Both the position numbers and the translations under genes were made by a program. From the IMG/VR virus record IMGVR_UViG_3300005805_000211, positions 1-38,189 of that record: a stretch of 38,189 bases of DNA; one strand, given 5' to 3'. The notes beneath the pieces were generated by a model. It saw only the letters and a list, made by a program, of their open reading frames with translations. It did not search any database and had not been told where the DNA came from. Below, piece by piece: positions 3,035-24,651 of this stretch. The DNA comes from a virus. Its lineage: Duplodnaviria; Caudoviricetes. Each line of letters starts with the position of its first letter. The stretch's first letter is position 1.

Positions 3035-3170
3035 AGTGTATTCTGCCCATTTCAGACTAGCCACCTGAGTTATCTATTAGAGACCATCAGTTGTTTAAAA
3101 TGTGTGCCAGTCGGTACGGGTTATCGGAAGCCCCCCGTGTTCGGCAAAATCCAAGCACCTGAAGCCCCGG
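3035..3170 (-). repeat. composite cassette element
   Basis: One GCCCCG arm near 3164, the polar motif at 3120-3138, TAATAGATAACT near 3068, and promoter TGGCTA-GTCTG-N12-TACACT at 3063-3035. Confidence 0.85.
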
Positions 3171-3253
3171 CTCAAACACAAAAAAATCAGACTGGCGCGC
3201 CCACAAAATTCGTGGGCTTGCCCTCAGAGAGAGAGTGTGACGGGTCGCCAAGT

Positions 3254-3282
3254 TGGCTAGTCTGTACCTGTAGAGATACACT
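3254..3282 (+). promoter_or_regulatory. cassette-type promoter
   Basis: TGGCTA-GTCTG-N12-TACACT. Confidence 0.8.
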
Positions 3283-3311
3283 CATAGACAACCACAAAAA
3301 AGGGAGAAACA

Positions 3312-3659
3312 ATGGACACGAAAACATTTGAACAAAAAGTTAAAGACGCCATAGACGGCGAAATAATTATTGGTGACGGACACACACTGTTCGGCGCTGA
3401 CTTCTATGCACCGCACTTCACGGCAAGCGAACTCACTGACGCTGGCCTGCTTCGTAATCACGCAAGCAACCAAGAGTCGTGGAAGTCCACCATCTTTAGT
3501 GACAATGGTGAAGTGATTGACGAACTGTTTGCCGTTTACAATTTGGAATTTCTTTATTGGATTGCAAATCAAATTGGAGTGACAGAAAGTGTTCGGTCAA
3601 TGGGGCGCGGTTCGCAAGCGCGAGAACTGGTCGGTTATATTCGCGAAAAGTTGGCCTGA
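3312..3659 (+). CDS. hypothetical protein
   Basis: Promoter, CA-rich leader and AGGGAG SD. Confidence 0.85.
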   Translation: MDTKTFEQKVKDAIDGEIIIGDGHTLFGADFYAPHFTASELTDAGLLRNHASNQESWKSTIFSDNGEVIDELFAVYNLEFLYWIANQIGVTESVRSMGRGSQARELVGYIREKLA

Positions 3660-3673
3660 AAAGTTATCTATTA

Positions 3674-3703
3674 GAGAGTGTGGGGGGAAACTCCCACACT
3701 CTC
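3674..3703. terminator. hairpin between convergent genes
   Basis: GAGAGTGTGGG / CCCACACTCTC, flanked by two AGTTATCTATTA motifs. Confidence 0.6.
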
Positions 3704-3715
3704 AAAAGTTATCTA

Positions 3716-3952
3716 TTAAAGTAATGCCGGCTTCGCGAGCCTCTGTGTGCCGACCAACCATAACGCCCACGCATTAACGCCAGACACGAGTTCTCTCATT
3801 GTGATACCCCACTCCTCACACTGGGTATCAAAATCGCCTTGAGCAATTTCACCCCACACATCGGCCACCGCTTGCGCCCCTGATATTCCTAGCGCGTAAT
3901 AATTCTCGTTCAGTATTTCTATAATTTCTGTTGTCTTTAATTTACTGGTCAT
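3716..3952 (-). CDS. hypothetical protein
   Basis: Starts about 10 nt after a minus-oriented polar motif. Confidence 0.7.
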   Translation of the reverse strand: MTSKLKTTEIIEILNENYYALGISGAQAVADVWGEIAQGDFDTQCEEWGITMRELVSGVNAWALWLVGTQRLAKPALL

Positions 3953-3961
3953 AGCCCAACC

Positions 3962-4010
3962 TTATCGGAAGCCCCCCATCAAAGCAAGACCTACGCAGGG
4001 GGAGCCCCGC
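3962..4010 (-). repeat. truncated composite cassette element
   Basis: TTATCGGAAGCCCCCC at 3962-3977 plus one AGCCCCG arm. Confidence 0.7.
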
Positions 4011-4065
4011 CACCCTCTAAGATGTATTCAGATAAATCTATCTAGAAGGCAAGCAGGAGAAGACA

Positions 4066-5088
4066 ATGGCACACGGTTTAGAGATTACGGCAGGAGGGGT
4101 GGCTCGAATGGCGTACTCTAATAGAGAAATCCCCTGGCACAGACTTGGGATAGCGATGAAGGGTCTCCAAACAGCCGAAGCAATGCTCGAAGCCGCACAG
4201 GCAGACTTTGACGTAGTCACTACACGGGTTGCTGTGTGTGACGACAATGGCGAACCTATACGAAACCCCGACAACTCTCCAATATTAATTAGCGATAGTC
4301 GCGCGACCGTACGGGTGAATAATGATGGAACGTTCGAGGGTCTCTCAACGGTCGGAACTCGCTACGTGGTTCAGCAAAACAAAGAGTGTTTAGATTACGC
4401 CCTAGCAATTGTCGGAGCTAGTACGGGTGATGCTGTAGTTGACACGTGTGGAGTTCTTAATGGTGGGCGTGAATTCTTTGCTTCACTAGATCTCGGCGCA
4501 CTAGTCATTGACCCCATGGGCGTAAATGACCAAATCGAACGTTATCTATTAGTGAGAAACGGGCATGACGGCAAGACGCCGATTACCTTTGCCAACACTT
4601 CTATCCGAGCAGTATGTAAGAACACAGTAATCGCTGGGATGAAATCAGCGAAACGTGTATTCACTGCTCGCCATACAAGAAATGTCGAAGCCGCAATAGA
4701 GCAAGCCAACGAAGTTCTTAATATTTCTAATGCGTGGGCGTCAGAATTCACGAGAACAGCAGAAAAATTACTCTCCGTCAAAGTCGCTCCCGGAACAAAA
4801 ATATTTGGAGATGTTCTTGACGCAGTGTTTCCATTAGAAAATGGCGCAACGTCTAGACAAAAGAAAAACAGAGACGAAGTTCTCTCGCTTGTCAAGGGTG
4901 TTTACGAAAGTGATAACAACGCAAAGGGCTACGGGTATAACGGTTGGTCAATGCTGAATGCTATTGGCGAATATCTTGATCACTATCGCGAAGCGACCCC
5001 AGTTGAGAGAGCGCTTGCGTCAATGGATAATAACTCTTGGGTGACAAGAGCAAAAATGATCGCTCAAGACAAACTCTTGTCGGTTTAA
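4066..5088 (+). CDS. DUF932 family phage/plasmid protein (TIGR03299-like)
   Basis: MAHGLE start, PWHRLG, Y-x-V-x-QN, L-x-GG, YLLVRNGHDG and IRAVCKNT motifs. Confidence 0.9.
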   Translation: MAHGLEITAGGVARMAYSNREIPWHRLGIAMKGLQTAEAMLEAAQADFDVVTTRVAVCDDNGEPIRNPDNSPILISDSRATVRVNNDGTFEGLSTVGTRYVVQQNKECLDYALAIVGASTGDAVVDTCGVLNGGREFFASLDLGALVIDPMGVNDQIERYLLVRNGHDGKTPITFANTSIRAVCKNTVIAGMKSAKRVFTARHTRNVEAAIEQANEVLNISNAWASEFTRTAEKLLSVKVAPGTKIFGDVLDAVFPLENGATSRQKKNRDEVLSLVKGVYESDNNAKGYGYNGWSMLNAIGEYLDHYREATPVERALASMDNNSWVTRAKMIAQDKLLSV

Positions 5089-5141
5089 TAAGTGCAGCAA
5101 CCTGTATCATCTAAACAGAACTCTTACGAAATGAGGCAACA

Positions 5142-5582
5142 TTGAGTGAGGAATATGATGATGAAGCATCTGACTTCTCGGGACACGGCGAAGACGATAT
5201 GCCCACAAGAGAAGAGCTTGCTATTTGGCTTAGTGAATTTATGTCTCAGTCCCAAAAGGCTAATGCCATGTATAGAAATCATTTCTGTACTCTATTAGTT
5301 TCCAAGCTTCACAAAGAGTTTGGTATTGAGGGGATGTGTGAGTTGATGATGGCGATAGACAAGCGTTCGGGTTGGGTCTCGGACATCATTATCGAGGACA
5401 ACGACATCCATGACATCCTTTTCCGTGAGTACGGCGTGTTCGACAATGATGCAATAATTAAGGCAAGGATGAGTAGTCAACTTGTCGAGATGAATAAGAA
5501 AATTTGGAGACTACGCAAAAAGTACGCAAAACTGATCGCTGAGGAAATAGCGTCTAACGCGTCTGCACAAGTTAAGGAATAG
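5142..5582 (+). CDS. hypothetical protein
   Basis: 146 aa ORF, GAGG SD, TTG start. Confidence 0.75.
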   Translation: MSEEYDDEASDFSGHGEDDMPTREELAIWLSEFMSQSQKANAMYRNHFCTLLVSKLHKEFGIEGMCELMMAIDKRSGWVSDIIIEDNDIHDILFREYGVFDNDAIIKARMSSQLVEMNKKIWRLRKKYAKLIAEEIASNASAQVKE

Positions 5583-7526
5583 TTATCTATTAATAGATGC
5601 TCGCGAAATTAACCCGAGTATTAACTGCACTGCCCCATCTTCCTCAACAAAATCTCCACCCTCGACAGCTGCATTAACAACTGTTCTTTTGTTATCTATT
5701 AGCTCATAGATGTATTCGTCTATAGTCCCACTCGTCAGCATGTATGTCGCCGTGACTGAACCCGTTTGACCAATACGGTGAAGTCTGGAATATGTCTGGT
5801 CTATGTCTGCGGGTGTCCATGGCAACTCGATGAACAAACACTCCTCGGACGCCGTAAGGGTGTGCCCTGTTTTGGCAGCCTGTATAGATAACGCAATTAC
5901 CGGAGCTTCATCCACCGATAAAGTCTGAAACTTTCTTTTGTTTTCTTCTACGTCTTCTACTTTCATTCCGCCCTGGATGCGTAGGTCCCCAAACTTACGG
6001 GCTACTTCGTCAACAATGTCTCGATGATGCGCTGCTACTACTACTTTTTTCCCGTTATCTATTCTCTCTTGTATCCATTCGAGCGCTGCTTCCATTTTCG
6101 CTTTAGCCGCGAGCCTTCTCAAGACAGATAGTCGAACTAGGTGTTCATTTGCTTCCGCCCTGATCATTGCCGACATTGCTGCGTTATAGGAAGGCAGCCC
6201 TTGCTCTATCGCTAACTGCCTAGCCCTTTCTGCGATATACATCAAAATATCTTGCTCTGCTTTCACGTAGTCTTTCATCGCGGCACTCGAACCGTCAATG
6301 ACTAATCGACTATGAACTACGGGCGGCAACTCTGATAGCACCTGGTCCTTGGTTCGGCGTATGTAGCATGCTCCTCTTAATCGTTCGTTTAACTCGTCAA
6401 GATGTGAATTGCCACTTAAGTTCCATTGACCAAATCTGTCTTGGTACGCAGCGCAATACCTTCGATAAAAACCCCAAAGACCTCCAAAATCCTTCAGCCT
6501 TCCCAAGATGTCTAGTTGACTGGCATATTCGGCTGGCCTGTTTGTCACGGGTGTTCCAGTGAGACAAAGCACGGGTGTATTCTTCTTGCTACTTCTAGCT
6601 ATTTTTATTGCTGCCTTTGTTCGTTGTGCCGTCGATGTTTTGCAGTAGTGGCTCTCGTCGAACACATAAGCGCCATGTCCCAAAAGATTAGCTTGCCATG
6701 CTTGTATGTTGCTGTAGCCAACGACGACTATGTCGTATGAGTTTTCTCCTGGGAATGTTTTTCTATTTGTTACTGTGCTAACTCTTCTATGAGGTATCCA
6801 CTTTGATATCTCATACGCCCAGTTGAGTACAAGGCTTGGTGGACACACAACAACGGCCGGATAAGTATCCCCATCTCTGGCAGATAAATACTCCAACGTT
6901 GCTATCGCCTGAATTGTTTTACCCAACCCCATCTCATCTGCAATAAATGTTCTTCGAGCGTTTGCCGCATAAGCAACGCCGGCTTTTTGATATGGAAGTA
7001 ATTCTCCAGTAAGGCCGGGCACGACTATGTCGGCGTCGGTCGACCTGGAAGCTTCGATTAATGTGTTGATTTGCGAATTTACTTTCTTGGAAATTGCCAT
7101 AACTTCGGCATCTATGGCCACATCAAAACCTTGAGCCCACTCAATTACTTGCGAGATGGATGACATCGGCGCGCGCCACGAATATCGTGCTCCATCCCAT
7201 GAAACAGCCGGGATTTTTTTTACTGCCGCGATTATTACTCGCTCGTATGGGAACTTCATATATATCATGTCGTCATAAAGAGACACGCGTTGCTCGCCGT
7301 GGGAAGCAATACTTTTTGGGGCCTGGAATTTTAAAACATCAGAGGTGACTTCGAACTCGTACTTAAGAGCAAACTCCCTAGCAGAGGCGATGGACGTAAT
7401 TGGAACTCTCCACACCTTGGCTACTTTGTCCCATCGAGCTCCATTTACTCTCTTTATTTCGCTTACCTGTTCTTGGTCGAACGGGAAATCAAAAATGAGT
7501 TCTTTGTTATCAAGAAACATCCTCAT
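5583..7526 (-). CDS. SNF2/SWI2-family helicase with two N-terminal HARP-like repeats (SMARCAL1-like)
   Basis: ADEMGLGKT, DESH, LTGTP, YIRRTK and QTYSRLHRIGQ motifs; duplicated FPY/F...K...WD...WR.P unit. Confidence 0.92.
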   Translation of the reverse strand: MRMFLDNKELIFDFPFDQEQVSEIKRVNGARWDKVAKVWRVPITSIASAREFALKYEFEVTSDVLKFQAPKSIASHGEQRVSLYDDMIYMKFPYERVIIAAVKKIPAVSWDGARYSWRAPMSSISQVIEWAQGFDVAIDAEVMAISKKVNSQINTLIEASRSTDADIVVPGLTGELLPYQKAGVAYAANARRTFIADEMGLGKTIQAIATLEYLSARDGDTYPAVVVCPPSLVLNWAYEISKWIPHRRVSTVTNRKTFPGENSYDIVVVGYSNIQAWQANLLGHGAYVFDESHYCKTSTAQRTKAAIKIARSSKKNTPVLCLTGTPVTNRPAEYASQLDILGRLKDFGGLWGFYRRYCAAYQDRFGQWNLSGNSHLDELNERLRGACYIRRTKDQVLSELPPVVHSRLVIDGSSAAMKDYVKAEQDILMYIAERARQLAIEQGLPSYNAAMSAMIRAEANEHLVRLSVLRRLAAKAKMEAALEWIQERIDNGKKVVVAAHHRDIVDEVARKFGDLRIQGGMKVEDVEENKRKFQTLSVDEAPVIALSIQAAKTGHTLTASEECLFIELPWTPADIDQTYSRLHRIGQTGSVTATYMLTSGTIDEYIYELIDNKRTVVNAAVEGGDFVEEDGAVQLILGLISRASINR

Positions 7527-7544
7527 TCGGTAAGTTTAACTCAG

Positions 7545-7621
7545 AAATAAACCGACTGACGGGCCACTATTAGCGGTTAGATGAAGGGAGAACCGCTCGT
7601 CGTGACCCGTCAGCCACCACA
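7545..7621 (-). ncRNA. candidate sRNA or structured leader with an anti-SD loop
   Basis: 13-bp plus 7-bp stem with G-U pairs on the minus strand, loop CUCCCUUCAUCU, followed by UUUAUUU; promoter just upstream. Confidence 0.45.
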
Positions 7622-7627
7622 AGGTTC

Positions 7628-7656
7628 ATGGTACAGCCCCATTAACAGACTAGACA
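7628..7656 (-). promoter_or_regulatory. cassette-type promoter
   Basis: TGTCTA-GTCTG-N12-TACCAT. Confidence 0.7.
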
Positions 7657-7675
7657 TCCTGTAGCATCAAATCTT

Positions 7676-7882
7676 ATGAGCAAACAGTATTCAATGTTTA
7701 ATTGTGTAGTTTGTGGATTCCCTATTGACCCGAAGTCAGCGAATGCTGAAAGACTCGGCGTGGTTTGGCTGCGCTCGAGCGGCAAAACAATTACGCGAGT
7801 AGTGGAGGAACTTCACTCATACAAGCACGAATTTTGCGATGACAAAGGCATGACAGACTATGTACAAGATCCCCTTTTCTAA
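7676..7882 (+). CDS. small putative Zn-binding protein
   Basis: CVVC and HEFC motifs; TAGCAT -10-like box just upstream (leaderless). Confidence 0.65.
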   Translation: MSKQYSMFNCVVCGFPIDPKSANAERLGVVWLRSSGKTITRVVEELHSYKHEFCDDKGMTDYVQDPLF

Positions 7883-8090
7883 ATTTGCATCAAGACTCTC
7901 AAACCTGAGAGCGGTTATCTATTGGAAGAAGTACAGCCTTCTTGCCCCACCATGTAAGCACTGCGTCTTCGAAATCACAAAGATGCCGGACATTCGTGGC
8001 CGGATGAAGTACTATCCGATTTGGGTTACGTGTACAAACCCTGAGTGGGGTGGGCCGGCAAACGACGGGTGTCAGTGGGGAAACGTTTAA

Positions 8091-8219
8091 AGTTATCGGA
8101 AGCCCCCGTACCGAATCGATGTGTGGTCCCTTCGAGCGGGGCTCTTTCTATCAATAAAAAAAGTTATCTATTAATAAAAAAAGTTATCTATTAGAGAACA
8201 GTGTCTCTAATAGATAACT
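8091..8219 (-). repeat. composite cassette element with inverted TAATAGATAACT pair
   Basis: Polar motif at 8091-8109; palindrome AGTTATCTATTAGAGA-N6-TCTCTAATAGATAACT at 8182-8219. Confidence 0.75.
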
Positions 8220-8224
8220 TTTCT

Positions 8225-8599
8225 TTAGAGCCACTCGGCTAAATCGCCATCCATAATTTCAGATGAGTCCACTCCGTTAGCTTCAGCGATTGCTTCCCAT
8301 AAATCTTCTTCAGTGAAATTGCCGTTCTCTGGAAGAAAATCATAAAAAGTGCCAGTCTTTTTACGAGGCTCAACTACTTCCACTTCTTCATCAGCAAATA
8401 AAGTTTGGAAGATTACAGGGCTATATTCGTCTTCGTGTCCCTCAATGTCTACTCCATCCCTCATGGTGTCGGTGTCCATGTCGTAAACACTTTGTGGACT
8501 CACGGATACTTCACTTACTTTGATTTTTACTTGTTGTCCAAGAAAATCTGAACACTTAATAATCATTCCCTCTTTTATTTCTTTGGCTTGAATTTTCAT
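8225..8599 (-). CDS. hypothetical acidic protein
   Basis: CAACTA leader and GAGGG SD. Confidence 0.8.
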   Translation of the reverse strand: MKIQAKEIKEGMIIKCSDFLGQQVKIKVSEVSVSPQSVYDMDTDTMRDGVDIEGHEDEYSPVIFQTLFADEEVEVVEPRKKTGTFYDFLPENGNFTEEDLWEAIAEANGVDSSEIMDGDLAEWL

Positions 8600-8653
8600 A
8601 ATTTCCCTCTCGTTGTTTAGTTGTTGTTTAGTTATTGTTTATTAAATCGATTT

Positions 8654-8947
8654 TTATACACTTAACCCTTCGGCTTTGGCTTCGTCAAATGAGAGCCAAG
8701 GGCTATCTGAGACCAAAGTTTTCATTTCTTCTAAAACAAGAAACCAGTATTCTGCTACTGATAAATCACAAAGTTGATCCTCGCTGGCAAATCCTGTATG
8801 TCCTGAGTTGGTGTAAAGATCTTTAGGCAACTCAATCTGATGAGAGAAGCACCGATTACCGTGTTCTTTGTAAAAGTATTGATTAAGTTTCAAATTATTA
8901 TCTTTTGCGTATGTTTCGCATTCTTTTCTACTTGATGATTTCTTCAT
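8654..8947 (-). CDS. hypothetical protein
   Basis: Promoter and GAGGGG SD. Confidence 0.8.
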   Translation of the reverse strand: MKKSSSRKECETYAKDNNLKLNQYFYKEHGNRCFSHQIELPKDLYTNSGHTGFASEDQLCDLSVAEYWFLVLEEMKTLVSDSPWLSFDEAKAEGLSV

Positions 8948-8976
8948 AATTCCCCTCTCATTATGTGGATGCTTTA

Positions 8977-9018
8977 ATGGTACTGGTCAAAGTACAGACT
9001 AGCCAAGTTATCTATTAG
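8977..9018 (-). promoter_or_regulatory. cassette-type promoter abutting TAATAGATAACT
   Basis: TAATAGATAAC-T-TGGCTA-GTCTG-N12-TACCAT. Confidence 0.8.
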
Positions 9019-9030
9019 TGATATATCGCT

Positions 9031-9471
9031 CTAGGTTAAGTTCCGATACTTCCAAACGTGAATCAATGGGTAATGATGAGTAGGGTTCTCTAAATCTAAT
9101 TCTTCATTATCTATATCTGGAGTGACACGAAATTTTCTCGTCTTGGTGTCCACTCCGTTATATGTATCTGGATAATTTTCTCTTACCTTATTTGCGAAAT
9201 CATTAAATTGTTTTCTGCCGATATTTGCGATTAACGCTAGTTGGCAAGCGAATAAATCTGGCTCAGTAATTTTCGGCATAGTGAGCGATAATGTCGCGCG
9301 CTTATTTCGCTCTACGTCTTTCCAATTCTTTCCAAATTGTTCCGTCAATACTTGTTTCACTTCTTTATGTTTTATTCCAAAGTGTTTTGCAATATCGCAT
9401 ACGGGTACTTCATCAAGAAACATCTCACATATGTATTTATATAATTTAGTGTTGAGCGATATCGTGGTCAT
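9031..9471 (-). CDS. hypothetical protein with possible N-terminal HTH
   Basis: VPVCDIAKHFGIKHKEVKQVL resembles an HTH. Confidence 0.7.
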   Translation of the reverse strand: MTTISLNTKLYKYICEMFLDEVPVCDIAKHFGIKHKEVKQVLTEQFGKNWKDVERNKRATLSLTMPKITEPDLFACQLALIANIGRKQFNDFANKVRENYPDTYNGVDTKTRKFRVTPDIDNEELDLENPTHHYPLIHVWKYRNLT

Positions 9472-9486
9472 ATCTAGTCTCTCAAT

Positions 9487-10107
9487 TTAGTTATCTATTA
9501 GTAATACTTCTTGTTCACTTCGGCGAGTGAATAGTGCTATGACCTCACTCTTGCAAATTGTCTTTTCTATGACTTTGGGTACATCATCACCATCAGCGAG
9601 TCGCTCGGCGAACCATTGAGCTCTATCTTTATCCAGAGTCCACGAAAATCCATCTTCGTTCTTGCCCTCGTGACATCCACGATAGACCGTAAGAGTCTCG
9701 GGTAGTGCTTTGTATTCTTCATACTCGTCAGCGTTCATAATTGCATTACGCTCGGGTCTATCTATCGTGAGTAATTCACGAAGCACGTCTTTGTCTTGCC
9801 ACTGGTTTTCAGTGCCTACACATACGTCACCTAGCAGTGTCCAATATTCAGAGTGGTTATCTATTAGGTGAGCAATCTCATCCAGCGCATTGACTCGGTA
9901 TGGTTTCTCGTGGAGATGAACATACAAACTAAATCTGCCATCCTCTAACGCCTGCTCCGCTTGTAATTTCTTTTGAGAATACATCTTGTTTATTAGTGCC
10001 ACGTCAATAATTCCGATTACGTGAACCAGTGGGTGCGCTAGACGTTTGCCGAAAATCTCGCAATCCACGAAATAGTCATTGAGGTCATCTAGTAATTGTT
10101 CGCTCAT
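9487..10107 (-). CDS. putative ADP-ribosyltransferase-fold protein (R-S-E clade)
   Basis: LTVYRG, GFSWT and EQEVLL in the canonical order. Confidence 0.65.
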   Translation of the reverse strand: MSEQLLDDLNDYFVDCEIFGKRLAHPLVHVIGIIDVALINKMYSQKKLQAEQALEDGRFSLYVHLHEKPYRVNALDEIAHLIDNHSEYWTLLGDVCVGTENQWQDKDVLRELLTIDRPERNAIMNADEYEEYKALPETLTVYRGCHEGKNEDGFSWTLDKDRAQWFAERLADGDDVPKVIEKTICKSEVIALFTRRSEQEVLLIDN

Positions 10108-10113
10108 ACCACC

Positions 10114-10220
10114 AATGTATCAGCACGTTTTCAAATTAGCAAGTTATCGGAAGCCCCCCGTATCCAGAACAAAAGACCAAGCGAAAGAAGCCCCGGCTTT
10201 GCAAGCACAATACGGGGCTT
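10114..10220 (-). repeat. composite cassette element
   Basis: Inverted repeat at 10188-10220, 20-mer at 10142-10161, variant promoter TTGCTA-ATTTG-N12-TACATT, leaderless ATG at 10107. Confidence 0.85.
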
Positions 10221-10326
10221 TATGAGGCAAAAAAAGCAAAAAAAAAGGTATGTCATCGGGTTAACATACCAGACTTACTCAGCCCGTCAGACCGCCGTCG
10301 TTTGGGTAGTTATCTATTAGGGGTGG

Positions 10327-10770
10327 TCAGAGAACGCGGATATTAACGCCTGACCATTCATGCCCTGATGCGTCACCGACCCGACGGTCTATCTCGCTCA
10401 TCGCTCCCTCAATCGCTTCCTGAATGATGTCAGTGATTTCATCTAGTCGCTCGTTCAGCACCGAGTCAGCGTCACCGTCAAGTGTTGGCACTGCGATGCG
10501 GATGGTCGCTCCGAACTCAATCGTGCCGACCGCTTCCTTGACCGTCATTGCTTCGGGTATGTCAAGCCACGCATAAATCGCTTCACGCACTGCCGTGTCT
10601 TGCCACTCGCTGTGTTGCGCACTAAAGTCAGGGTCAGACCCACATAGGTCGCTCACTCGTGCGTACCGCTCGTCAGCTGTCAAGCCACTCGGCATCGTCT
10701 CAAGTGCTTCGGTCAATTTCTCGGCGAGGGCGATGTCGCCCTCATTGGTGTACATTCCAAAATCGTACAT
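10327..10770 (-). CDS. hypothetical protein
   Basis: GAAAGGG SD. Confidence 0.8.
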   Translation of the reverse strand: MYDFGMYTNEGDIALAEKLTEALETMPSGLTADERYARVSDLCGSDPDFSAQHSEWQDTAVREAIYAWLDIPEAMTVKEAVGTIEFGATIRIAVPTLDGDADSVLNERLDEITDIIQEAIEGAMSEIDRRVGDASGHEWSGVNIRVL

Positions 10771-10796
10771 AATGTTTTCCCTTTCTTAGTTATCTA

Positions 10797-11081: not shown

Positions 11082-11111
11082 TGTTTTTCCCTTTCGTTGT
11101 GGTGTGGTGTT

Positions 11112-15634: not shown

Positions 15635-15646
15635 TAGATAACTATT

Positions 15647-15675
15647 TGGCTAGTCTGTATCTAGCCCGATACTCT
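15647..15675 (+). promoter_or_regulatory. cassette-type promoter
   Basis: TGGCTA-GTCTG-N12-TACTCT after a 12-mer. Confidence 0.8.
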
Positions 15676-15704
15676 AAAAACAACTACTAAACGAAAGAGG
15701 AAAA

Positions 15705-16205: not shown

Positions 16206-16357
16206 CCAGCAACCCCGAGAAAGAAAATGAACTCGCATTACTCGCACGGGCTGTATGGGGCGATAGCGCCGTAGAATTCTTGGTGGGTGCTTTATCGTCA
16301 GTAGTAAGCGAAAGTCAGTTAGACGCACTAATCACAAAACTGAAAGAGGGAATATGA
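16202..16357 (+). CDS. small hypothetical protein (51 aa, not in ORF track)
   Basis: ATGA overlaps at both ends; MTSNPEKENELALLARAVWG... Confidence 0.65.
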   Translation: MTSNPEKENELALLARAVWGDSAVEFLVGALSSVVSESQLDALITKLKEGI

Positions 16358-16479
16358 ACGCCGAGACTGAGCAAATAAAAACTACTGAGCCAGCGATAGA
16401 ACTACTATCTACGCCGTGCGTGGAGTGTGGCAAGCGACTATCGCCTGACGAGTTTTACTACGGGCACGACTGCGAATAA
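16354..16479 (+). CDS. small putative Zn-finger protein (41 aa, not in ORF track)
   Basis: GAGGG SD; CVECG...YGHDCE. Confidence 0.65.
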   Translation: MNAETEQIKTTEPAIELLSTPCVECGKRLSPDEFYYGHDCE

Positions 16480-16559
16480 AGTTTCTATCTCTAATAGATA
16501 ACTTTTTCTATCTCTATCTCTAATAGATAACTATTTGCCCAAAAAAAATAGCCAGGCTG

Positions 16560-16768
16560 AGCCCCGCCTGCGCCAAACAGCGCGGGGCTTCGACCTGAAA
16601 AAAACAGACAAATACTTTCGGCAGACACGGGGGGCTTCCGATAACTTTCGCCCACTGGGGTCGTGCGTGAAGGGGTCGCCAACATTTGCTCTTATTATTT
16701 GACGGTGGTGGAAGACCCGACTATCACTAATAGATAACTTGGCTAGTCTGTACCCTTACCGATACTAT
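16560..16768 (+). repeat. composite cassette element
   Basis: Inverted repeat at 16560-16589, 20-mer at 16627-16646, 16-mer at 16700-16715, 12-mer, promoter at 16740-16768. Confidence 0.9.
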
Positions 16769-16822
16769 GAAGGTACTCTCGTTGTACCACACAACTAGAC
16801 CCAACGAGAGTGGAGTAAAATA

Positions 16823-17251
16823 ATGAGTAAGTCCCTGTCAGTAAAGGTGAAGGTGAGTTCGCTCATCTCTGCCTTAGAAAAGGCATTGGCAGACCGTGAA
16901 AAACGGTTTGTTGAGCGAGAAAAAGAACAGGAAAAGTTTGAGAAGGCACAAGAGGCGTACAACCTTGCCGTGCTCAAACTAATCAAGAGTGGCAAAGCCG
17001 AAATCACCGAAGCAAGCAAGAACCACTGGGCAGACCGACACGACAAGAAAAAAGGAAAAACAGCGTTCAATGTGAGTGTCCTTTTGCCGAAGTCATCACT
17101 CCCCGTTGAGCCAGAAAGTCCAGACGGTTATCCAGAACATCAGTACAAGCGTGAAAAAGACGAAATTACACAAGCAATTCGTGTTCTGAAAATGACTGAA
17201 CAAACCGAAGTCTCGGCAAGCACCTACAAGAGCGTGGCTGAATACCTGTAA
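16823..17251 (+). CDS. hypothetical coiled-coil protein
   Basis: GGAG SD. Confidence 0.85.
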   Translation: MSKSLSVKVKVSSLISALEKALADREKRFVEREKEQEKFEKAQEAYNLAVLKLIKSGKAEITEASKNHWADRHDKKKGKTAFNVSVLLPKSSLPVEPESPDGYPEHQYKREKDEITQAIRVLKMTEQTEVSASTYKSVAEYL

Positions 17252-17271
17252 TCCCTAACAGGCTCAACCCA

Positions 17272-17313
17272 AAGGGGTTGGTGGGCAAATCGCCCGCCAA
17301 CCCCTTCTCTTAT
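17272..17313 (+). terminator. intrinsic terminator
   Basis: AAGGGGTTGGTGGGC / GCCCGCCAACCCCTT followed by a pyrimidine/T tract. Confidence 0.7.
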
Positions 17314-17547
17314 TGTGCCGAGTTATCTATTAGAGGTAGATAGTCAAAAGCCAAACAGCAACGAAAATAAATACTAATAGATAACTCATACCACTCTGAA
17401 AGAGTTGCGATACAGCAACGCCCGCAGTCGTGAGTTCGCCTCACGAAGTTCGTTTATGTTTGTCTCTAGGTCAGAGAGCCGTTGAAACATAAATAGTAAG
17501 TCGGACTTATCTAATGCCCCCCGTTCGTTCAGGCTGATGTTGTGAAC

Positions 17548-17745
17548 AAAGCCCCGGCTTGAACGGACTTGATGCGGGGCTTTGTCTGCGTTAAAGAAAT
17601 ACTTAGGCACGGGGGGCTTCCGATAACTGTCATCTCTGCTTTGGTTCACGCAAAAAGAATAACCGAACTGGTGTTCGTATGGCGCAAGTCTCTAATAGAT
17701 AACTGTCTAGGTATGTTGGAAAGTCTGTTATTAGGGGTGTAGGGT
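17548..17745 (+). repeat. composite cassette element with LexA box
   Basis: Inverted repeat at 17548-17583, 20-mer at 17609-17628, 12-mer, promoter TGGAAA-GTCTG-N12-TAGGGT. Confidence 0.85.
17664..17677. promoter_or_regulatory. putative LexA (SOS) box
   Basis: CGAAC-TGGT-GTTCG matches the Gram-positive/actinobacterial CGAAC-N4-GTTCG. Confidence 0.55.
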
Positions 17746-17790
17746 AGTGGCTAGCCACAACCCACACCAACTAGAAAGAAGGTAATCAAA

Positions 17791-18204
17791 ATGGCTACTA
17801 AGACAAAAGTGATAGAAGTGACAGAGAATTATCTAAAAGCCCTAACACTCCAAGAGCAAGCCGAGCAAGTTCTCGCAGAAACAAAAGAGACAATGCTCGC
17901 CGTGTTCCAAGCCGAAGGAATTAGCGAGACAGAAGTGAACGACCTTGTAGTGAAGGTTTCACCGTCATCACGCCGAACCTTTGACATTGAGAAACTCCGT
18001 GAGAAACTCACGCCTGCTTTGTTCCGTAAAGTCACCAAGCCAACAGTAGATACTCGTGCTTGGGATAGCGCACAAGATAAAGGCGAAATCAGCAAGAGAA
18101 TTATTAGCACCTGCGTAGAAGTAAACAACTTCTTTCGGGTCACAGTCAAGCCTGCGAAAGGCGCAGAGAAGCCAGCAAGCAAAAAAGTTAGCGAAGTAGC
18201 CTAA
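17791..18204 (+). CDS. hypothetical phage protein (basic, coiled-coil N-terminus)
   Basis: GAAGG SD. Confidence 0.85.
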   Translation: MATKTKVIEVTENYLKALTLQEQAEQVLAETKETMLAVFQAEGISETEVNDLVVKVSPSSRRTFDIEKLREKLTPALFRKVTKPTVDTRAWDSAQDKGEISKRIISTCVEVNNFFRVTVKPAKGAEKPASKKVSEVA

Positions 18205-18274
18205 CTTGTCAAGTTTGTAGTGGGGGTTAAATGCCCCCATTACACTAATAGATAACTACTAGAAAGGGGCAGAA

Positions 18275-18694
18275 ATGCCAACAGCATTACTACTTAAAAC
18301 AAATGGTGAAGTTCTACCAATAGAACTGACAAACAATAACGACCACGAAATTATCCACGAAAGTGTTGGGGGTTGGTTTGACTGCGTAAGAAATCACGAA
18401 AGGCGCATTGTCGGTTATGTCCACGACGAAGGGCTACTCATTGGTTTGCCAGCAAATCCAGTTTCGTCGTTTCTCTTTAATCAAGTTCTCGCAGGTGACT
18501 GCGTAATCGTTGGCTCTTTCAGCGAAACGGGCGAGTATGACGGAGAGAGCCACGAACTACCCCCTGCTTTTATGTCAAACAGGTTCGTAGAAATGGCTCG
18601 TGAAATGGGCGCAGATATAGAACTCAACGAGAAACTAAACGCTCTACTCGCAAATGTCGATACCAGTATCACCATAAGCGACTGGGTGGACTAG
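18275..18694 (+). CDS. DUF3846-like protein
   Basis: VGGWFDCV, DEGLLIGLPANPVSS and LAGDCVIVG motifs. Confidence 0.8.
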   Translation: MPTALLLKTNGEVLPIELTNNNDHEIIHESVGGWFDCVRNHERRIVGYVHDEGLLIGLPANPVSSFLFNQVLAGDCVIVGSFSETGEYDGESHELPPAFMSNRFVEMAREMGADIELNEKLNALLANVDTSITISDWVD

Positions 18695-18704
18695 TTATCT
18701 ATGA

Positions 18705-18736
18705 GAGAGTGGCACACCCCCCCGTGTGCCACTCTT
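18705..18736 (+). terminator. hairpin after gene
   Basis: AGAGTGGCACAC / GTGTGCCACTCT. Confidence 0.6.
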
Positions 18737-18784
18737 TCGCCTACCCCTAATAGATAACTTTTTCACCAACCCAACCCAACGAAC

Positions 18785-18894
18785 AAAGCCCCGCCCGACA
18801 CACCAAAAGCCGGGGCTTTAACCCAAACTAATACGGGGGGCTTCCGATAACTATTCTGTATGGGTTGGCTAGTTTGTACCTTTATCAGTATGCT
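18785..18894 (+). repeat. composite cassette element (short)
   Basis: Inverted repeat at 18785-18819, 20-mer at 18833-18852, promoter TGGCTA-GTTTG-N12-TATGCT. Confidence 0.85.
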
Positions 18895-18920
18895 GATGTT
18901 CTACTAAAAGGAGCAACGAT

Positions 18921-19160
18921 ATGACAGATAAAATTTGTACTGCTTGTGGGCGTAAAAGTTCTGAGCATATTCTCTGTAGTTATGACAAAGTCACTCGGTA
19001 TTGTCCTGGCGATAAAATTATGTCCAAAGATGAGGAGTTGGAACTCATTGACGACCTGATTAATATGTTTGATGAATTAGGTTTAACAATAGAAACCTTT
19101 AAGGAATTAGGCTTAATAGATAACAACTACCAACCACTAGAAATCAAAGGGGATAGATAA
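18921..19160 (+). CDS. hypothetical protein
   Basis: AGGAG SD; CTAC motif. Confidence 0.75.
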   Translation: MTDKICTACGRKSSEHILCSYDKVTRYCPGDKIMSKDEELELIDDLINMFDELGLTIETFKELGLIDNNYQPLEIKGDR

Positions 19161-19378
19161 TGATGATAAACACAAATCCACAGGAGTTGCGAGAAACAGT
19201 CAGTCGTGCTTACTGGCAGGGCAGACAAGAGGCACAACAAGAGATAGACCAACTCAAAGCAGAAATTGAGAGACTAAAAAATCTCCGTTTCACTGGTGCG
19301 CCCTACTCTCAAAAAGAGTTGGAGCAAATGGGCAACCCAAACTATGTGACACCAGAAGGGTGGATATCGTGGGAGTAG
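19160..19378 (+). CDS. hypothetical protein
   Basis: TAATG coupling. Confidence 0.75.
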   Translation: MMINTNPQELRETVSRAYWQGRQEAQQEIDQLKAEIERLKNLRFTGAPYSQKELEQMGNPNYVTPEGWISWE

Positions 19379-19572
19379 TTGTAAACGAATTTAATGAGTG
19401 GTGGCTTAATCATCTCGCCCAAGAAACAGAGAAGGCTAAAAAGCGAGCAGATAGGCTTTATCCAACTCGTGTTCTCAGCAATAAATTAAAAAGAGAAATC
19501 TTTATGGACTGCTTTCATTGGGCGATGTTGGAGCAACGACTGACAATGGAGCAACTTTATGATAAGAAGTAA
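19360..19572 (+). CDS. hypothetical protein (start uncertain)
   Basis: Fills the gap in the operon. Confidence 0.6.
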   Translation: MDIVGVVVNEFNEWWLNHLAQETEKAKKRADRLYPTRVLSNKLKREIFMDCFHWAMLEQRLTMEQLYDKK

Positions 19573-19822
19573 AGAAGTAATAAACGGCGACAAAGACTGG
19601 TTTATTTGCTTGTGTAAAAACGAACCACACTTAGACGGATTTTTTACTTGTCTGCCCAACGGGAGCATTACGCCACCAACGCTTAACGGTGACTGGCAAG
19701 GCGTATATTACGTTTGTGGTAAATGTAGTCGCATTATCAACCAAGACACGCTAGAGGTCGCTGGTGTCTGCTCTGAGCAAGTTGCTTTTAATAACGCCAA
19801 CTATAATTGGGATCTCTACTAA
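19559..19822 (+). CDS. hypothetical Cys-rich protein
   Basis: CLC.N...GF.TC and CGKC motifs; GGAG SD. Confidence 0.75.
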   Translation: MIRSKEVINGDKDWFICLCKNEPHLDGFFTCLPNGSITPPTLNGDWQGVYYVCGKCSRIINQDTLEVAGVCSEQVAFNNANYNWDLY

Positions 19823-20184
19823 TGATAATAGATAACTTTTTTTCGCGAATTCGCTCGCTTGTGTCCGTTATCTATCAGTGTCTCATTGCTCAAAAACGAA
19901 ACGAACGGGTAATAGGTATAAAGGCTGAAATCATCTCAGATGAGATTATGTTGGAGTCTCCCTATTCTGTAGTTGCCAAAACTAGAGAATTAGTTTATTG
20001 CTCGCTTTCTCGTCAGCCAAAATATGAATTATTTGACGAGTATGGGATTCCTGATGATGATGTCTTTCACTATTTCCCAGACATTAAGAGTGTTCTAAAG
20101 CAGTGTGTATCCACTGGCGATAATGGTTGGCGTATTTACTCTTGCGAACTAGTGTCTGCAAAAGAGGATTTGCTAGACGCCTAA
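19822..20184 (+). CDS. hypothetical protein
   Basis: TAATG coupling favours start 19822. Confidence 0.65.
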   Translation: MIIDNFFSRIRSLVSVIYQCLIAQKRNERVIGIKAEIISDEIMLESPYSVVAKTRELVYCSLSRQPKYELFDEYGIPDDDVFHYFPDIKSVLKQCVSTGDNGWRIYSCELVSAKEDLLDA

Positions 20185-20216
20185 CCCTAATAGATAACTT
20201 TTTTTTGACCGGAAAG

Positions 20217-20415
20217 AGCCCCGGGTCCAACGGAACATGCGGGGCTTCGACCTGTCGGCATAGGGGGCTGGGGGGCTTCCAATAACTCTCGGCTGTAAAT
20301 AAAATGATTTTATTTGATGACCCTGAACGCTGGGGCTTCCGATAACTCTCTAATAGATAACTTTATTTGACGGTGGTGGATGAGGTTGGCAAGTCTGTAC
20401 TTGTGGGGATATAGT
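20217..20415 (+). repeat. composite element with two polar motifs
   Basis: Inverted repeat at 20217-20246, motifs at 20270-20287 and 20332-20347, 12-mer, 16-mer at 20368-20383, promoter at 20387-20415. Confidence 0.85.
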
Positions 20416-20446
20416 GGGTCGTACCACAACTAACAAAGGATTAAAT

Positions 20447-21175
20447 ATGCCTAATTGGTGCTATCAAAACCTAGAAATACGAGGACCGAAATCTGACATT
20501 GACGAATTCTTTGACGCCATGCAACAGTCAGTTCCCGACTCTGAGGGGGTAATCCATACAACGAGCGAACTCAACCACTTATGCCCACTTGATGAAAGAA
20601 CATACGCCTACAAAACTATTACCGACAAAGACGGAAATGAAAAACTCATAAGAACCTATGCGACTATGGAAGAAAATGGCTTTGACGGCTATAACCACGC
20701 AGTAGAAGTGTGGGGAACAAAGTGGGGCGCATGCGATTTGGAAGTCAATAGTCGCAAAGGCAAATATCCACTTCATATTTACTTCACTAGTGCTTGGTCG
20801 CCTGCGTCTGGCTTAATTAGGGGCATATCCACGAAGTACCCGACTCTAATTTTCGGGCTGAGATACACAGAGGAAGCAGATTTTTTTGCTGGATACGAAA
20901 TAGTCCAAAATGGGAAAATTCGCCATACTGCCAATGCTGGGTCTGCCAACACTGTGGAAGCAGATGAGTGGTTGGAAACTCAGAAACAACTAGCAGAAAG
21001 TAATCCTGAAATCAAAGAGTGCGACTATATGGATACTTACTACGACATGTGCAATGAAGCCCGAGAACTCCGTGACGATAAATTAGAAACGGGATATCAG
21101 AAAGTTATGAATTCCTTCTCACGGTGCTACTCGGCTAAACCACCGAAAGAAAAGGTGATGACTACCCCCTTTTAA
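20447..21175 (+). CDS. YubB/DUF1281-like ferredoxin-fold protein
   Basis: MPNWC.N.L.I.G, WGTKWG and F.SAWSP motifs; AAGGA SD. Confidence 0.85.
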   Translation: MPNWCYQNLEIRGPKSDIDEFFDAMQQSVPDSEGVIHTTSELNHLCPLDERTYAYKTITDKDGNEKLIRTYATMEENGFDGYNHAVEVWGTKWGACDLEVNSRKGKYPLHIYFTSAWSPASGLIRGISTKYPTLIFGLRYTEEADFFAGYEIVQNGKIRHTANAGSANTVEADEWLETQKQLAESNPEIKECDYMDTYYDMCNEARELRDDKLETGYQKVMNSFSRCYSAKPPKEKVMTTPF

Positions 21176-21225
21176 CTTAATAGATAACTTATTAGACACA
21201 AACCCATAATCAAACAAAGGAAAAA

Positions 21226-21447
21226 ATGGATACCAAAATAGAAAAAGAATCAAAAAAAATAGCAATGCGCTTATTGCAGGAGCGACAAGCAAAAGACTGG
21301 TCGCAACAGGAACTCGCCGATAGGGCTGGTCTTGACCGAAAAACAGTCAACCGAATTGAGAACCTGCACTTCTCGCCAAGTATGGAAACCTTCTTGCGTC
21401 TATGCAATGCAATGAAAGTCCGACCACAAGAAGTCATTAAGGGCTAG
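21226..21447 (+). CDS. XRE-family HTH transcriptional regulator
   Basis: SQQELADRAGLDRKTVNRIEN...PS. Confidence 0.9.
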   Translation: MDTKIEKESKKIAMRLLQERQAKDWSQQELADRAGLDRKTVNRIENLHFSPSMETFLRLCNAMKVRPQEVIKG

Positions 21448-21460
21448 TTATCGGTTCGTG

Positions 21461-21503
21461 GTGGTCGCTATGCCTGCACCTTTCATGCTTGCATGGCGAC
21501 CAC
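21461..21503 (+). other. hairpin with anti-SD-like loop
   Basis: 13-bp stem with one G-U pair, loop CCUUUCA. Confidence 0.5.
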
Positions 21504-21508
21504 TCGGC

Positions 21509-21549
21509 TAATAGATAACTCTGCTAGTTTGTACCCTTACTGATATGCT
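21509..21549 (+). promoter_or_regulatory. 12-mer plus cassette-type promoter
   Basis: TAATAGATAACT-CTGCTA-GTTTG-N12-TATGCT. Confidence 0.8.
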
Positions 21550-21580
21550 CTACTAACCACAACTACTACAAGGAGAAATT

Positions 21581-22294
21581 ATGTCAGACGAAAAAGACAA
21601 CCAAAACACCGAAGCACCAGAGCGCACAAGCGACCCTACGAAGTTTCGTAATCAGGTAATGCTGGAAGCACTCAAAGACACAATGACCCGAACCATATAT
21701 GCAAAAACAGAAATGTGCAAAGCAGAACCAATGTCTGACAACCCACCACTTCTGTTGGTTGCCTATAATGCAGACGCAGAGAACACGCCGAAACTCCAAG
21801 TTGGCGACAATGAAAAAATCAAAATGGGCATGATTCCACTTATCCACTCGGACGATGTTCGTGACGCTTTAATTGACGTAATTGGCGCATTGCCAAGCGA
21901 ACAATTTGAGTTCATGATTCTCGCTGTTGAGGGATACCACGACACTGCACAAGTAAACGGTGAACTGCCCGAAAATTGGAAGCGAGGCGATTTGGCTGAG
22001 GACTACAAAACAAATCCATTTACTACCGTAAAAGAGGGAATCATAGTTAGTGGCGTGGACTGGGAACACGAATACGCCATAAACGGTCATTGCACTTACT
22101 CTTACGATGACAAGGGCGTTCCAGTGTTTGACGAAACAGACATGAGTTGGTCGCAAATAGAAATCAGTGAGGAAACTGGCATGATGACTTTTATTATGGC
22201 TAGTGCTTGCAGTTTTATGCAGAGAAAACTCCTAGCAGAACACTTCCACTCATTATTGGAGTCAACTCCTAAAAAGAAAAATAACCCACAATGA
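21581..22294 (+). CDS. hypothetical protein
   Basis: AAGGAG SD. Confidence 0.85.
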   Translation: MSDEKDNQNTEAPERTSDPTKFRNQVMLEALKDTMTRTIYAKTEMCKAEPMSDNPPLLLVAYNADAENTPKLQVGDNEKIKMGMIPLIHSDDVRDALIDVIGALPSEQFEFMILAVEGYHDTAQVNGELPENWKRGDLAEDYKTNPFTTVKEGIIVSGVDWEHEYAINGHCTYSYDDKGVPVFDETDMSWSQIEISEETGMMTFIMASACSFMQRKLLAEHFHSLLESTPKKKNNPQ

Positions 22295-22446
22295 ACGAAA
22301 ACGCCGTAAAGCAAATCACCGAAATTGTTGATAAAGCAATAGGCACAATATCGGGAAGGGAGTTGGTGGCTTCGTCTGAAATCATTGACCTACTTCTTGA
22401 TATCCGACTACTCCTACTAACAGAGACAGACAAGGAAACAGCATGA
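22291..22446 (+). CDS. small hypothetical protein (51 aa, not in ORF track)
   Basis: ATGA overlaps at both ends; MNENAVKQITEIVDKAIG... Confidence 0.7.
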   Translation: MNENAVKQITEIVDKAIGTISGRELVASSEIIDLLLDIRLLLLTETDKETA

Positions 22447-22808
22447 CAATAGAATTAACTGGCGAGGACAAAAACAACCCTTTTTTGGCACTTGGGCAAT
22501 TTGATATTGAGGACCTATCCCTACTGACCGAAGCCATAGGCTTATTCGTGCAGAACAACTCACGGCTCATGTTTGACGCAAAGGAAGTCCACGAAGTCGC
22601 CAAATGTACTAATGACAAAGAACGTCAGAAGGCGATATCCAAACTAAAACCAAAATATAAAGGTCATGCACTAGATGACGATGAGATAAACCGACTAGAC
22701 CTAATAGATAACTTAGTACTTGACGCAATGAGCGCACTGGAAGCCAAAGAGGAATCGGGCGCAGTCATACTCTCGCTAGAGGAACACCTAAAGAATCAGG
22801 AGGAGTGA
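22443..22808 (+). CDS. hypothetical protein
   Basis: AAGGA SD; ATGA overlap. Confidence 0.8.
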   Translation: MTIELTGEDKNNPFLALGQFDIEDLSLLTEAIGLFVQNNSRLMFDAKEVHEVAKCTNDKERQKAISKLKPKYKGHALDDDEINRLDLIDNLVLDAMSALEAKEESGAVILSLEEHLKNQEE

Positions 22809-23106
22809 TTCGGCTTTGCTGTCAGCCTGAGCCCCGCTTTACTCTTTCAAAAATTGCTCCCGACGTTAAAAAAAATCAAAAAAATACACTCTTGGGCGGC
22901 CGGCCGGCGGCGAGAAAAAATCAAAAAAATGTAATTTTTTATATGACGGTGGTGGATGAGATGGCAGTGGTGGCAGTGCGAAGAATTCGGACTCCAAGTC
23001 ATAACGAAAATTTCACTTTTTTAACCATGTACCGCGCAAGTCTGATATTGGGTTCGGTAGCATGGGGGGCTAATAGATAACTTTTAACTACAAAAAAGGA
23101 TTTATC

Positions 23107-23592
23107 GTGGAAACTATCAATGACGAGTACGTAGATACAGTCAATAAAGAACTGTGGAGTAAAGCCCGAGAAAAGTACGGCTCTAACTACTCTGTACCCA
23201 AAGATGAAATTTCCTACATCGGCGAACTCATTAGAGGGCTACATGTGCTGGGGATTTGGCAAAAGGAAGGGCAAGCAAAAGCCCCCGAATCTGTCTTGCG
23301 CTCATACTCCGTCATGGAGCATGTAATCCCCGAAGTAATTAAAAGGGCTTTAGGTAAACAGGAAATAGAAACTGCCGAGTCTTTGCGCCCAGAAAAAAGA
23401 GAAAAAAAATGGAATTCTTTTATTGCTTGGGCGAAACTTCATGAAGCCGAACAATTCACTACCGAACAACTGGTAGAGGTTTGCGGGTTCTCTTACCAGA
23501 CAACTCTTGAGTTCTTAAAGATTTCTCCATACTTTAAGAAAATCAAAAAGGGTCTTTACGAAATAACGAACCCAAAGACTAAAGATAAATAA
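23107..23592 (+). CDS. hypothetical protein, possible C-terminal winged HTH
   Basis: AAGGA SD; FTTEQLVEVCGFSYQT...KKIKKGLY; variant promoter at 23034-23063. Confidence 0.75.
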   Translation: METINDEYVDTVNKELWSKAREKYGSNYSVPKDEISYIGELIRGLHVLGIWQKEGQAKAPESVLRSYSVMEHVIPEVIKRALGKQEIETAESLRPEKREKKWNSFIAWAKLHEAEQFTTEQLVEVCGFSYQTTLEFLKISPYFKKIKKGLYEITNPKTKDK

Positions 23593-23640
23593 GTCTTTCT
23601 TTAATAGATAACTTTTTATCTTTCTTTCTTTTTACAAAAA

Positions 23641-23886
23641 AGCCCCGCTCTACCCAAAACCAAACGGGGCTTCGGCTCGCCGAGCAAGCAGACAGGCACG
23701 ACGGGGGGCTTCCGATAACTGGCGCACACTTCGCTTCGCTTCGTGCTTGCCCACACCCAAACAGCCACCTCTAATAGATAACTCCAAGCACACCTCTAAT
23801 AGATAACTCTCTCTAATAGATAACTTCCAACAATAATAAATAGTCTTAAATAAATGTTGGCTAGTCTGTACCCTTCCCGATACAGT
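23641..23886 (+). repeat. composite cassette element with three tandem 12-mers
   Basis: Inverted repeat at 23641-23671, 20-mer at 23701-23720, block, CTCTAATAGATAACT three times, promoter at 23858-23886. Confidence 0.9.
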
Positions 23887-24649: not shown

Positions 24650-24651
24650 CC

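Follow-up and report, generated by a model that had tools for sequence, protein, structure and literature searches.

Introduction

Phages of the T4 type carry PeSL (promoter-early stem-loop) elements, repeated intergenic units of ~100-200 bp with a host-type promoter and a Shine-Dalgarno (SD) sequence, set in a region of variable gene content; a gene lying between two such elements in one phage can be matched in a relative by a single chimeric element, crossover positions vary, the units have a G/C-tract inverted repeat, and a dedicated recombinase is not known as far as the portions of the two accounts used here extend (PMC2839356, PMC4122927). The operators and stoperators of cluster A mycobacteriophages (L5, with its gp71, and TipsytheTRex) are dozens of asymmetric 12-13-mers oriented with transcription, found at promoters and in short intergenic spaces, with a spelling that varies between related phages, going by the sections of the source that concern them (PMC9283540). 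Integrons and CALIN are described, in the part of the source that bears on this, as co-oriented arrays of small unrelated genes split by a repeat, with units that move whole (PMC9892861). The virus record IMGVR_UViG_3300005805_000211 (Duplodnaviria; Caudoviricetes), whose entire 38,189 nucleotides are referred to below as the window, contains a small-gene block of ~27 kb in which a multi-part intergenic element recurs. A preliminary description of positions 3035..23886 had called this array integron-like; our verdict is for PeSL-like regulatory cassettes with stoperator-like sites, and not for an integron.

Four parts recur, a polar 20-mer (P, the polar box), a 12-mer (the T word), an inverted repeat (the dyad) and a promoter box. 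The explanation that we favour, and consider probable on the evidence of the sequences, is that together they form a recurring unit of early-gene control, in which sites for phage proteins flank a host-type promoter and whose shared stretches lead to unit shuffling, likely by Rad52-like recombination at short homologies. Host polymerase would start at each unit's promoter upon entry, and later a phage protein would bind the T and P sites and shut the block off at the −35, possibly acting as a roadblock too. A second, conserved dimeric protein would sit on the dyad, held at a fixed spacing, and the short identical stretches would give a Rad52-like annealase its crossover points; promoter-bearing units would hence move intact.

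Parts of the element

P has 15 matches in the window at up to three mismatches, ten of them exact (100 shuffles give an expectation of 0), and a 16th copy, with its core at 20332-20347, matches over the last 16 bases only; the 16 positions and strands listed in the preliminary description are all right. The dyad, AGCCCCG-N16-18-CGGGGC, occurs 12 times, with 11 within 3035..23886 (two of these ending GGGGCC); at the P copies at 3119, 3960 and 8091 it is reduced to a single arm. The optional block was also correctly noticed and has four copies, at 11278, 13604, 14523 and 23721. What had been presented as a fixed order of parts is a consensus, several copies of the element being without some of them.

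The T word, TAATAGATAACT, had been taken for a part bound to the element. It is not: 49 exact copies, or 61 when one mismatch is allowed, span 173-27268, and by place the 61 comprise 22 within 40 nt behind a same-strand stop, 31 otherwise intergenic and eight intragenic, seven of the eight being sense. Their orientation mostly follows transcription and the polarity switches near 11200. The block that the word marks, 173..27268, probably consists of early genes. Its confinement recurs in a relative, G001 (170,425 bases, estimated complete), where all parts lie within bases 1-27,500 except for a P at 169,692 and three T words with one mismatch. In the window the four parts account for 26.5% of intergenic DNA.

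Several observations stand beside these counts. Oppositely oriented pairs of T words occur at gene ends (11866-11932, 13432-13473, 17321-17386, 18693-18759 and 8182-8219), some around a hairpin, and are candidate terminators. A Cys-rich open reading frame (ORF) of 76 aa on the plus strand, 7860-8090, is conserved in the clade, and its end abuts the P at 8091, which faces it head-on. Directly 3' of one P there is a degenerate tandem repeat of CACTGGCGCTCGGTG-like units (G002 10760-10960; L044:1030-1560), the length of which differs among strains. A 1.7-kb metagenome contig, L050, has on its minus strand at 1230-1731 a tandem array of exact P cores (five) and T words (eight) with periods of 50-131 nt, devoid of the dyad and upstream of a DUF932-like gene 19% identical to that of the window; the contig has no relative in IMG/VR, and the array may be a decoy carried by an unrelated element, or else a quirk of the assembly.

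Promoter-like sites, word spelling and dyad geometry

By sequence only, the window has 15 plausible promoters of the form TTGGCT-AGTCTGTAC-N9-TAnnnT, three of the 18 pattern matches having been dropped for overlap or for lying outside the block; a generic sigma-70 scan gave no excess (17 versus 24 expected), and a PafBC-type promoter was set aside as a misfit to its consensus, judged by eye. P and T both end in GATAACT. This end lies 4-5 nt before the box AGTCTGTAC in seven of the 15, overlapping the first base of the TTGGCT −35, and a P-like copy can replace the T word ahead of the promoter box. Over nine genomes 38 of 101 promoter-like sites have an adjacent word, which in G008 occupies the −35 position in 10 of 18.

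A second promoter-like class, TGACGGTGGTGGA, is present in the window at 16700, 20368, 22944, 27646, 29401, 30137, 31187 and 31516. It is kept far more widely across the family than is the T word, and is probably a class of middle-gene promoters.

A survey of 80 loci around the ATPase gene revealed seven sister lineages (78-86% ATPase identity) that use words of their own, such as ACTAGATAAGT, GGTAGATAAGT, AAAGGATAATG and GGTGTAGGTAA. The dyad is unchanged in all seven, with its spacing kept, and six have a P that consists of a G-run and then a tail resembling that lineage's word. To be respelled jointly, as are the 12-mer and the P tail, is what binding sites would do, and we infer that the T word and the tail of P represent a single type of site, recognised by one protein specific to the lineage.

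Measured over 85 dyads in eight genomes, the distance from dyad to box falls at 27-31 nt for 80 of the 113 orientations and at 37-42 nt, about one helical turn longer, for 15; the sites are partly orthologous and hence not independent. Among 57 singly oriented dyads G-T is as common at the flanks as A-C (11 versus 9; 9 versus 8), the stem does not extend inwards (7 of 57 paired against 20 expected) and a T tract is seen at eight; because of this parity, the want of inward extension and the rarity of the T tract, the dyads are putatively double-stranded protein sites, probably for the second conserved dimeric protein of the scheme above.

A candidate reader of the word

Our lead for the putative reader of T word and P tail is the product of 36880..37311 (plus strand), a fast-evolving, predicted winged-helix protein of 143 aa that was picked when G001 genes were screened for their presence in nine records. 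By profile search it is full-length in 10 of 13 records of word lineages, the three misses being records that, by locus coordinates, end before the position of the gene. In the records of other lineages, 14 of 14, the match is partial and weaker or there is none, and G013 and G014 have the two flanking genes next to each other or almost so. Averaged over seven lineages the identity of the candidate is 29%, and that of the flanking genes 63% and 58%. The structure model (pLDDT 81) matches MarR/PadR winged-helix proteins (best Foldseek E 0.011), with a structural alignment of VIA Z 12.4 and root-mean-square deviation 2.4 over 85 residues. That other genes share its distribution weighs against it.

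Other genes considered as reader were rejected: the helix-turn-helix (HTH) genes at 21226, 23107 and 27685 keep a constant recognition helix across lineages with different words, 9031-9471 is present in 1 of 16 records, and a 224-aa HTH protein of G001 has weak generic matches only. For 23107-23592 the ESM Atlas gave nothing above 0.9.

Rearrangements among relatives

The mapping covered 12 contigs of this clade from IMG/VR and 14 distinct ones from metagenomes (G002, G003 and G004 denote the L003, L006 and L021 contigs, and G005 is L015). The preliminary description had proposed accessory-gene shuffling, to be checked by aligning relatives, and held that identical gene order in these would speak against it. 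Gene order is variable in the clade, entire gene units distinguish close relatives, and breaks by which units were gained, lost, relocated or inverted do fall at the element, as had been suggested. The unit around 11409..11861 (plus strand; gene 'g18', 150 aa, of no family) is a mobile one: first in the window, G002, G003 and L018, it stands five units further on in G001 and L043, between homologues of 18275-18694 and 19559-19822, and L043, with the same relocated order, was assembled separately from G001.

At base level 21 rearrangements were read by eye, unresolved allele replacements being excluded; an ungapped switch-point score was misled by indels in four of eight events, and those junctions were read from the sequences. 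Ten of the crossovers are in register within a repeated part, with shared stretches of 11-36 nt where these were read. Three are at P: a 737-bp unit of G002 is absent from G001, the two filled copies having 28 nt in common but for one mismatch; L027 lacks two units; and at the first site of the mobile unit 36 nt are shared, again with one mismatch. Two lie in the dyad or its spacer, at the second site of the mobile unit and where G024 and G019 differ by 1.6 kb, and four in the T word: L018/G005 have an inversion, L100 a unit that L103 lacks, L044 an insertion, and G007 an 863-bp unit flanked by an exact 21-nt repeat. The promoter box has one, a gene swap in L044. Four further events join different parts out of register, one of them an 8.5-kb loss in G007 that is possibly a misassembly; one has a T word at one end only; and six use no part, several of these falling at start/stop overlaps. 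The element is a real exchange point, and exchange is not via one fixed site. As with PeSL elements, gene units are gained and lost by recombination between elements with one chimeric element left behind. Examined for excised circles or skipped units, Logan contigs from the eight public runs that reproduce the window sequence have no back joint of P to P, which is no evidence either way, such contigs ending at repeats and dropping rare forms.

Recombination machinery and alternative explanations

No recombinase had been seen in the window, and a search beyond it was advised. Its outcome in 14 related genomes (11 with a completeness of 90% or more) was no tyrosine recombinase (PF00589; the control matched 14/14 known genomes), no Y1-HUH protein (PF01797; control 7/14) and no serine recombinase over the cut-off (PF00239; control 13/14), the sole PF00239 match, with E 0.02 over 47 positions of a 3,700-aa polyvalent protein, being below it; the serine recombinase domain PF07508 and other HUH families gave nothing in a Pfam scan of 129 G001 ORFs, no cross-genome profile search having been made for these. 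Rad52/22 (PF04098) is encoded in 14 of the 14, and in G001 its gene adjoins one for a PD-(D/E)XK nuclease, with RuvC and SSB elsewhere. We infer that this annealase makes the crossovers. Might an unrecognised recombinase instead cut at P, in a dedicated integron-like system whose units are excised and inserted as circles? In its favour whole P-to-P units are gained, lost and relocated, the three crossovers at P are joined by close-strain alignments that often end there, P is nearly invariant in this clade and the geometry of dyad and box is fixed. In an attC site one core is RYYYAAC, and a CALIN needs no IntI in cis. The other core half is given as GTTRRRY in the part of the source concerned (PMC9892861), and by a simple pattern test, with no covariance model, the pair RYYYAAC...GTTRRRY was found within 150 nt of 0 of 15 P copies. 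Five elements folded as DNA on both strands had z of −2.9 to +0.6 and nothing in common beyond the 7-9-bp dyad. Where an integron has a single fixed crossover position, the ten in-register crossovers here are spread over four parts, seven of them away from P; sister lineages, in which gene order varies too, have a degenerate P; the units carry promoter-like sites of their own; and there is the absence, just described, of the three recombinase families. Such a system we hold to be very unlikely. The term 'integron-like' is accordingly not supported, nor is the view of the 20-mer as the recombination site; six of the 21 events use no part.

Is the shuffling then the function of the element, or a by-product? 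If the complex of dyad and P were selected to recruit annealase or nuclease, homologous recombination would be targeted there, and for this speak the four out-of-register junctions and the dyad loops and P-adjacent spacers, often strongly different between strains otherwise 97% identical; Arbiol et al. also speculate, in the portion of their text concerned, on a protein binding the GGGG...CCCC stems of PeSL elements (PMC2839356). Neutral spacers and mosaic exchange with distant relatives yield the same pattern, though, and two findings count against a special role of the element: lineages without the T word also turn over genes in this block, and seven strains of one word lineage have no event over 10 kb. 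We think it unlikely that recombination is so targeted. About as improbable, in our estimation, is that the sites are non-transcriptional and organise or protect the DNA that enters first, as a coating against restriction, as entry stops or as a replication start, with shuffling as a by-product; the word at gene ends and within genes as well as at promoters, the polarity flip at the block centre and the depletion of AGCT and GGCC all accord with this, and the position of the word, abutting or overlapping the −35 at a fixed distance, and its following of the local direction of transcription, as stoperators do in the account drawn on here (PMC9283540), do not. The depletion, in window 1-27300 relative to the rest of the window and G001, is 14 against 103 expected for AGCT and 16 against 78 for GGCC; G001 contains no GATC. 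A bolder combination, to which we give little credence, is an integrase-free programmed shuffling in which the dyad-binder and the winged-helix reader regulate and also aim annealase and nuclease, exchange favours phages that share a word, and L050 is a decoy array.

To return to the control unit shuffled at short homologies, several results weigh against it. All 21 events were read by eye from metagenome assemblies, and the four out-of-register ones are poorly explained by simple homology. The Red-beta minimum is reported, in the section of the paper relied on, as 23-27 bp of exact pairing (De Paepe et al., PMC3945230), and several crossover repeats (11-21 nt exact) are below it; the fit of the 11-36-nt repeats to what an annealase would need is approximate. 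The window's own dyad-to-P spacing is more scattered, at 25-47 nt, than that of dyad and box across genomes. Over seven lineages neither the identity of the candidate reader (rho −0.17, Mantel p 0.26) nor its recognition-helix region (rho 0.09, p 0.63) follows word distance. A test for compensation by an activator was negative, TTG being present in 12 of 38 word-adjacent sites against 16 of 63 others (p 0.5); most good −35 sites are independent of an adjacent word. We prefer repression of early transcription by the reader, with activation as the alternative.

The elements along the block

On the minus strand P stands at 3119..3138 (one mismatch) and 3960..3979 (three mismatches), in both cases with the single dyad arm upstream, and at 8091..8110, where it is one G short. 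The last had been thought to lack a clear cargo ORF; it points to 7651, where a promoter-like site precedes the SNF2 helicase gene. Next, 10142..10219 combines a dyad (10189-10219) with an exact P (10142-10161). A divergent element, 11140..11370, has a degenerate minus-strand P at 11140-11159, a common dyad at 11189-11219 and an exact plus-strand P at 11253-11272, followed by the optional block, a T word at 11330-11341 and the promoter-like TTGGCT-AGTCTGAAC-N9-TATAGT.

All subsequent oriented elements are on the plus strand and include a dyad. That at 11994..12177 has an exact P (12063-12082) and two T words; those at 13522..13696 (P exact, 13579-13598) and 14438..14614 (P exact, 14498-14517) have the optional block, a T word and a promoter-like site, the head of the latter resembling 13579-13730 and its upstream half, 14369-14517, being 87% identical to 15066-15214. 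The element at 15135..15305 comprises an exact P (15195-15214) and a T word. At 16560..16768 the exact P (16627-16646) is followed by the TGACGGTGGTGGA site at 16700, a T word and a promoter-like site, and at 17550..17745 an exact P (17609-17628) by a T word and a promoter-like site. In 18787..18894 the promoter-like site comes after an exact P (18833-18852) and lacks a T word. The P at 20268-20287 and the P core at 20332-20347 share the element 20217..20415, with a T word, a site of the second (TGACGG) class and a promoter-like site. The element 23641..23886, with an exact P (23701-23720), the optional block, three T words and a promoter-like site, precedes the AAA+ ATPase gene. The earlier statement that P points into unrelated cargo fails for this copy, which heads the ATPase gene and a partner, both conserved in the family. 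The last dyad, 27504..27534, has no P and is followed by the TGACGG-class site at 27646.

Source, relatives and host

Besides DUF932, SNF2 helicase and AAA+ ATPase genes the window encodes WhiB, several HTH proteins and many small proteins of no family. G001, retrieved by means of the 20-mer, adds terminase, portal, capsid (the portal and capsid families being HK97-type), sheath and a second WhiB to the recombination genes named above. The host is probably an actinobacterium, because of the WhiB genes, of which G001 has two, and public runs containing the window are mostly freshwater metagenomes, with no RNA run among those listed. No close cultured relative was found among 50,697 GenBank phage records, the best tblastn identity of the ATPase being 31%. 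The 17-mer was found in 47 metagenome stretches, 16 loci with a single P and no T word being dropped as chance, and an 18-mer had one match in 185,579 prokaryote genomes, likely chance. Against Rfam the whole window had no match at E up to 1, and no account of this element was found in a literature search that covered mainly open papers.

Four clade contigs begin at almost one place (window 1-60), adjoining C-rich low-complexity sequence, and G001 has one extra P and T word just before its end; the shared starts are a genome end or an assembly break. Elsewhere G001 encodes a 3,694-aa polyvalent protein (L069:1047-12131) with prohead protease, ArdC-N, zincin and helicase domains. At 63-83 kb (L066-L067) ~13 clustered 2OG-Fe(II) oxygenase genes are accompanied by those for a fatty acid desaturase, a cyclopropane synthase-like methyltransferase and glutathione peroxidases. 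A PAPS-reductase-domain gene (L068:11229-13162) adjoins a ParB-domain gene, a pair possibly for DNA modification.

Comparison with known systems

With integrons and CALIN the locus shares the co-oriented array of small unrelated genes and the whole units that move, and it differs in having no attC core pair, common hairpin, IntI or fixed crossover point, in the promoter-like sites of its units and in that inversions happen. The resemblance to Rad52-like phage annealase systems lies in the Rad52/22 gene of all 14 genomes and in exchanges bounded by short imperfect homologies, as in the portion of the account used (PMC3945230), the difference being the repeats shorter than the Red-beta minimum given there.

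Stoperators are matched by the asymmetry of the word, its orientation with transcription and number (61 copies, where more than 20 asymmetric 13-mers characterize cluster A), its places and its varying spelling. Cluster A phages are temperate and their stoperators block elongation in an orientation-dependent way. Here, in contrast, no integrase was found in the 14 genomes, the sites are confined to one block, the proposed reader is one winged-helix protein that has a helical tail, and a dyad and a G-run go together with the word. The two-domain cluster A immunity repressor (HTH/Stoperator) was not among the matches listed for the candidate reader or for another HTH gene, no genome search with the repressor itself having been made. 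Because no integrase was found the phage is probably lytic; a ParB-domain gene in G001 is also to be noted.

PeSL elements had been named in the preliminary description as an analogue and set aside on grounds of sequence; the behaviour of the locus fits them in unit size, promoter and SD, variable gene content, chimeric elements, varied crossovers and G/C-tract inverted repeat. Features of PeSL cassettes also include a stem-loop that ends transcription, and mini-circles. They belong to T4-type phages of Gram-negative hosts, whereas here there are two WhiB genes, an HK97-type portal and capsid, a Rad52-type annealase, a probably actinobacterial host and no close relative among GenBank phages; the inverted repeat has a fixed unpaired centre of 16-20 nt, resembling a DNA dyad and not a terminator stem, and the unit has an oriented lineage-specific word and a fixed spacing of dyad and box. 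No new recombinase is revealed. The seven lineages offer natural pairs of protein and word for the study of joint change of a regulator and 60 sites. The locus is PeSL-like in behaviour and not a PeSL by lineage; with it, PeSL-type shuffling reaches an uncultured family of freshwater phages of ~150-170 kb, the hosts of which are probably actinobacteria, and is tied to a stoperator-like word respelled per lineage across dozens of copies.

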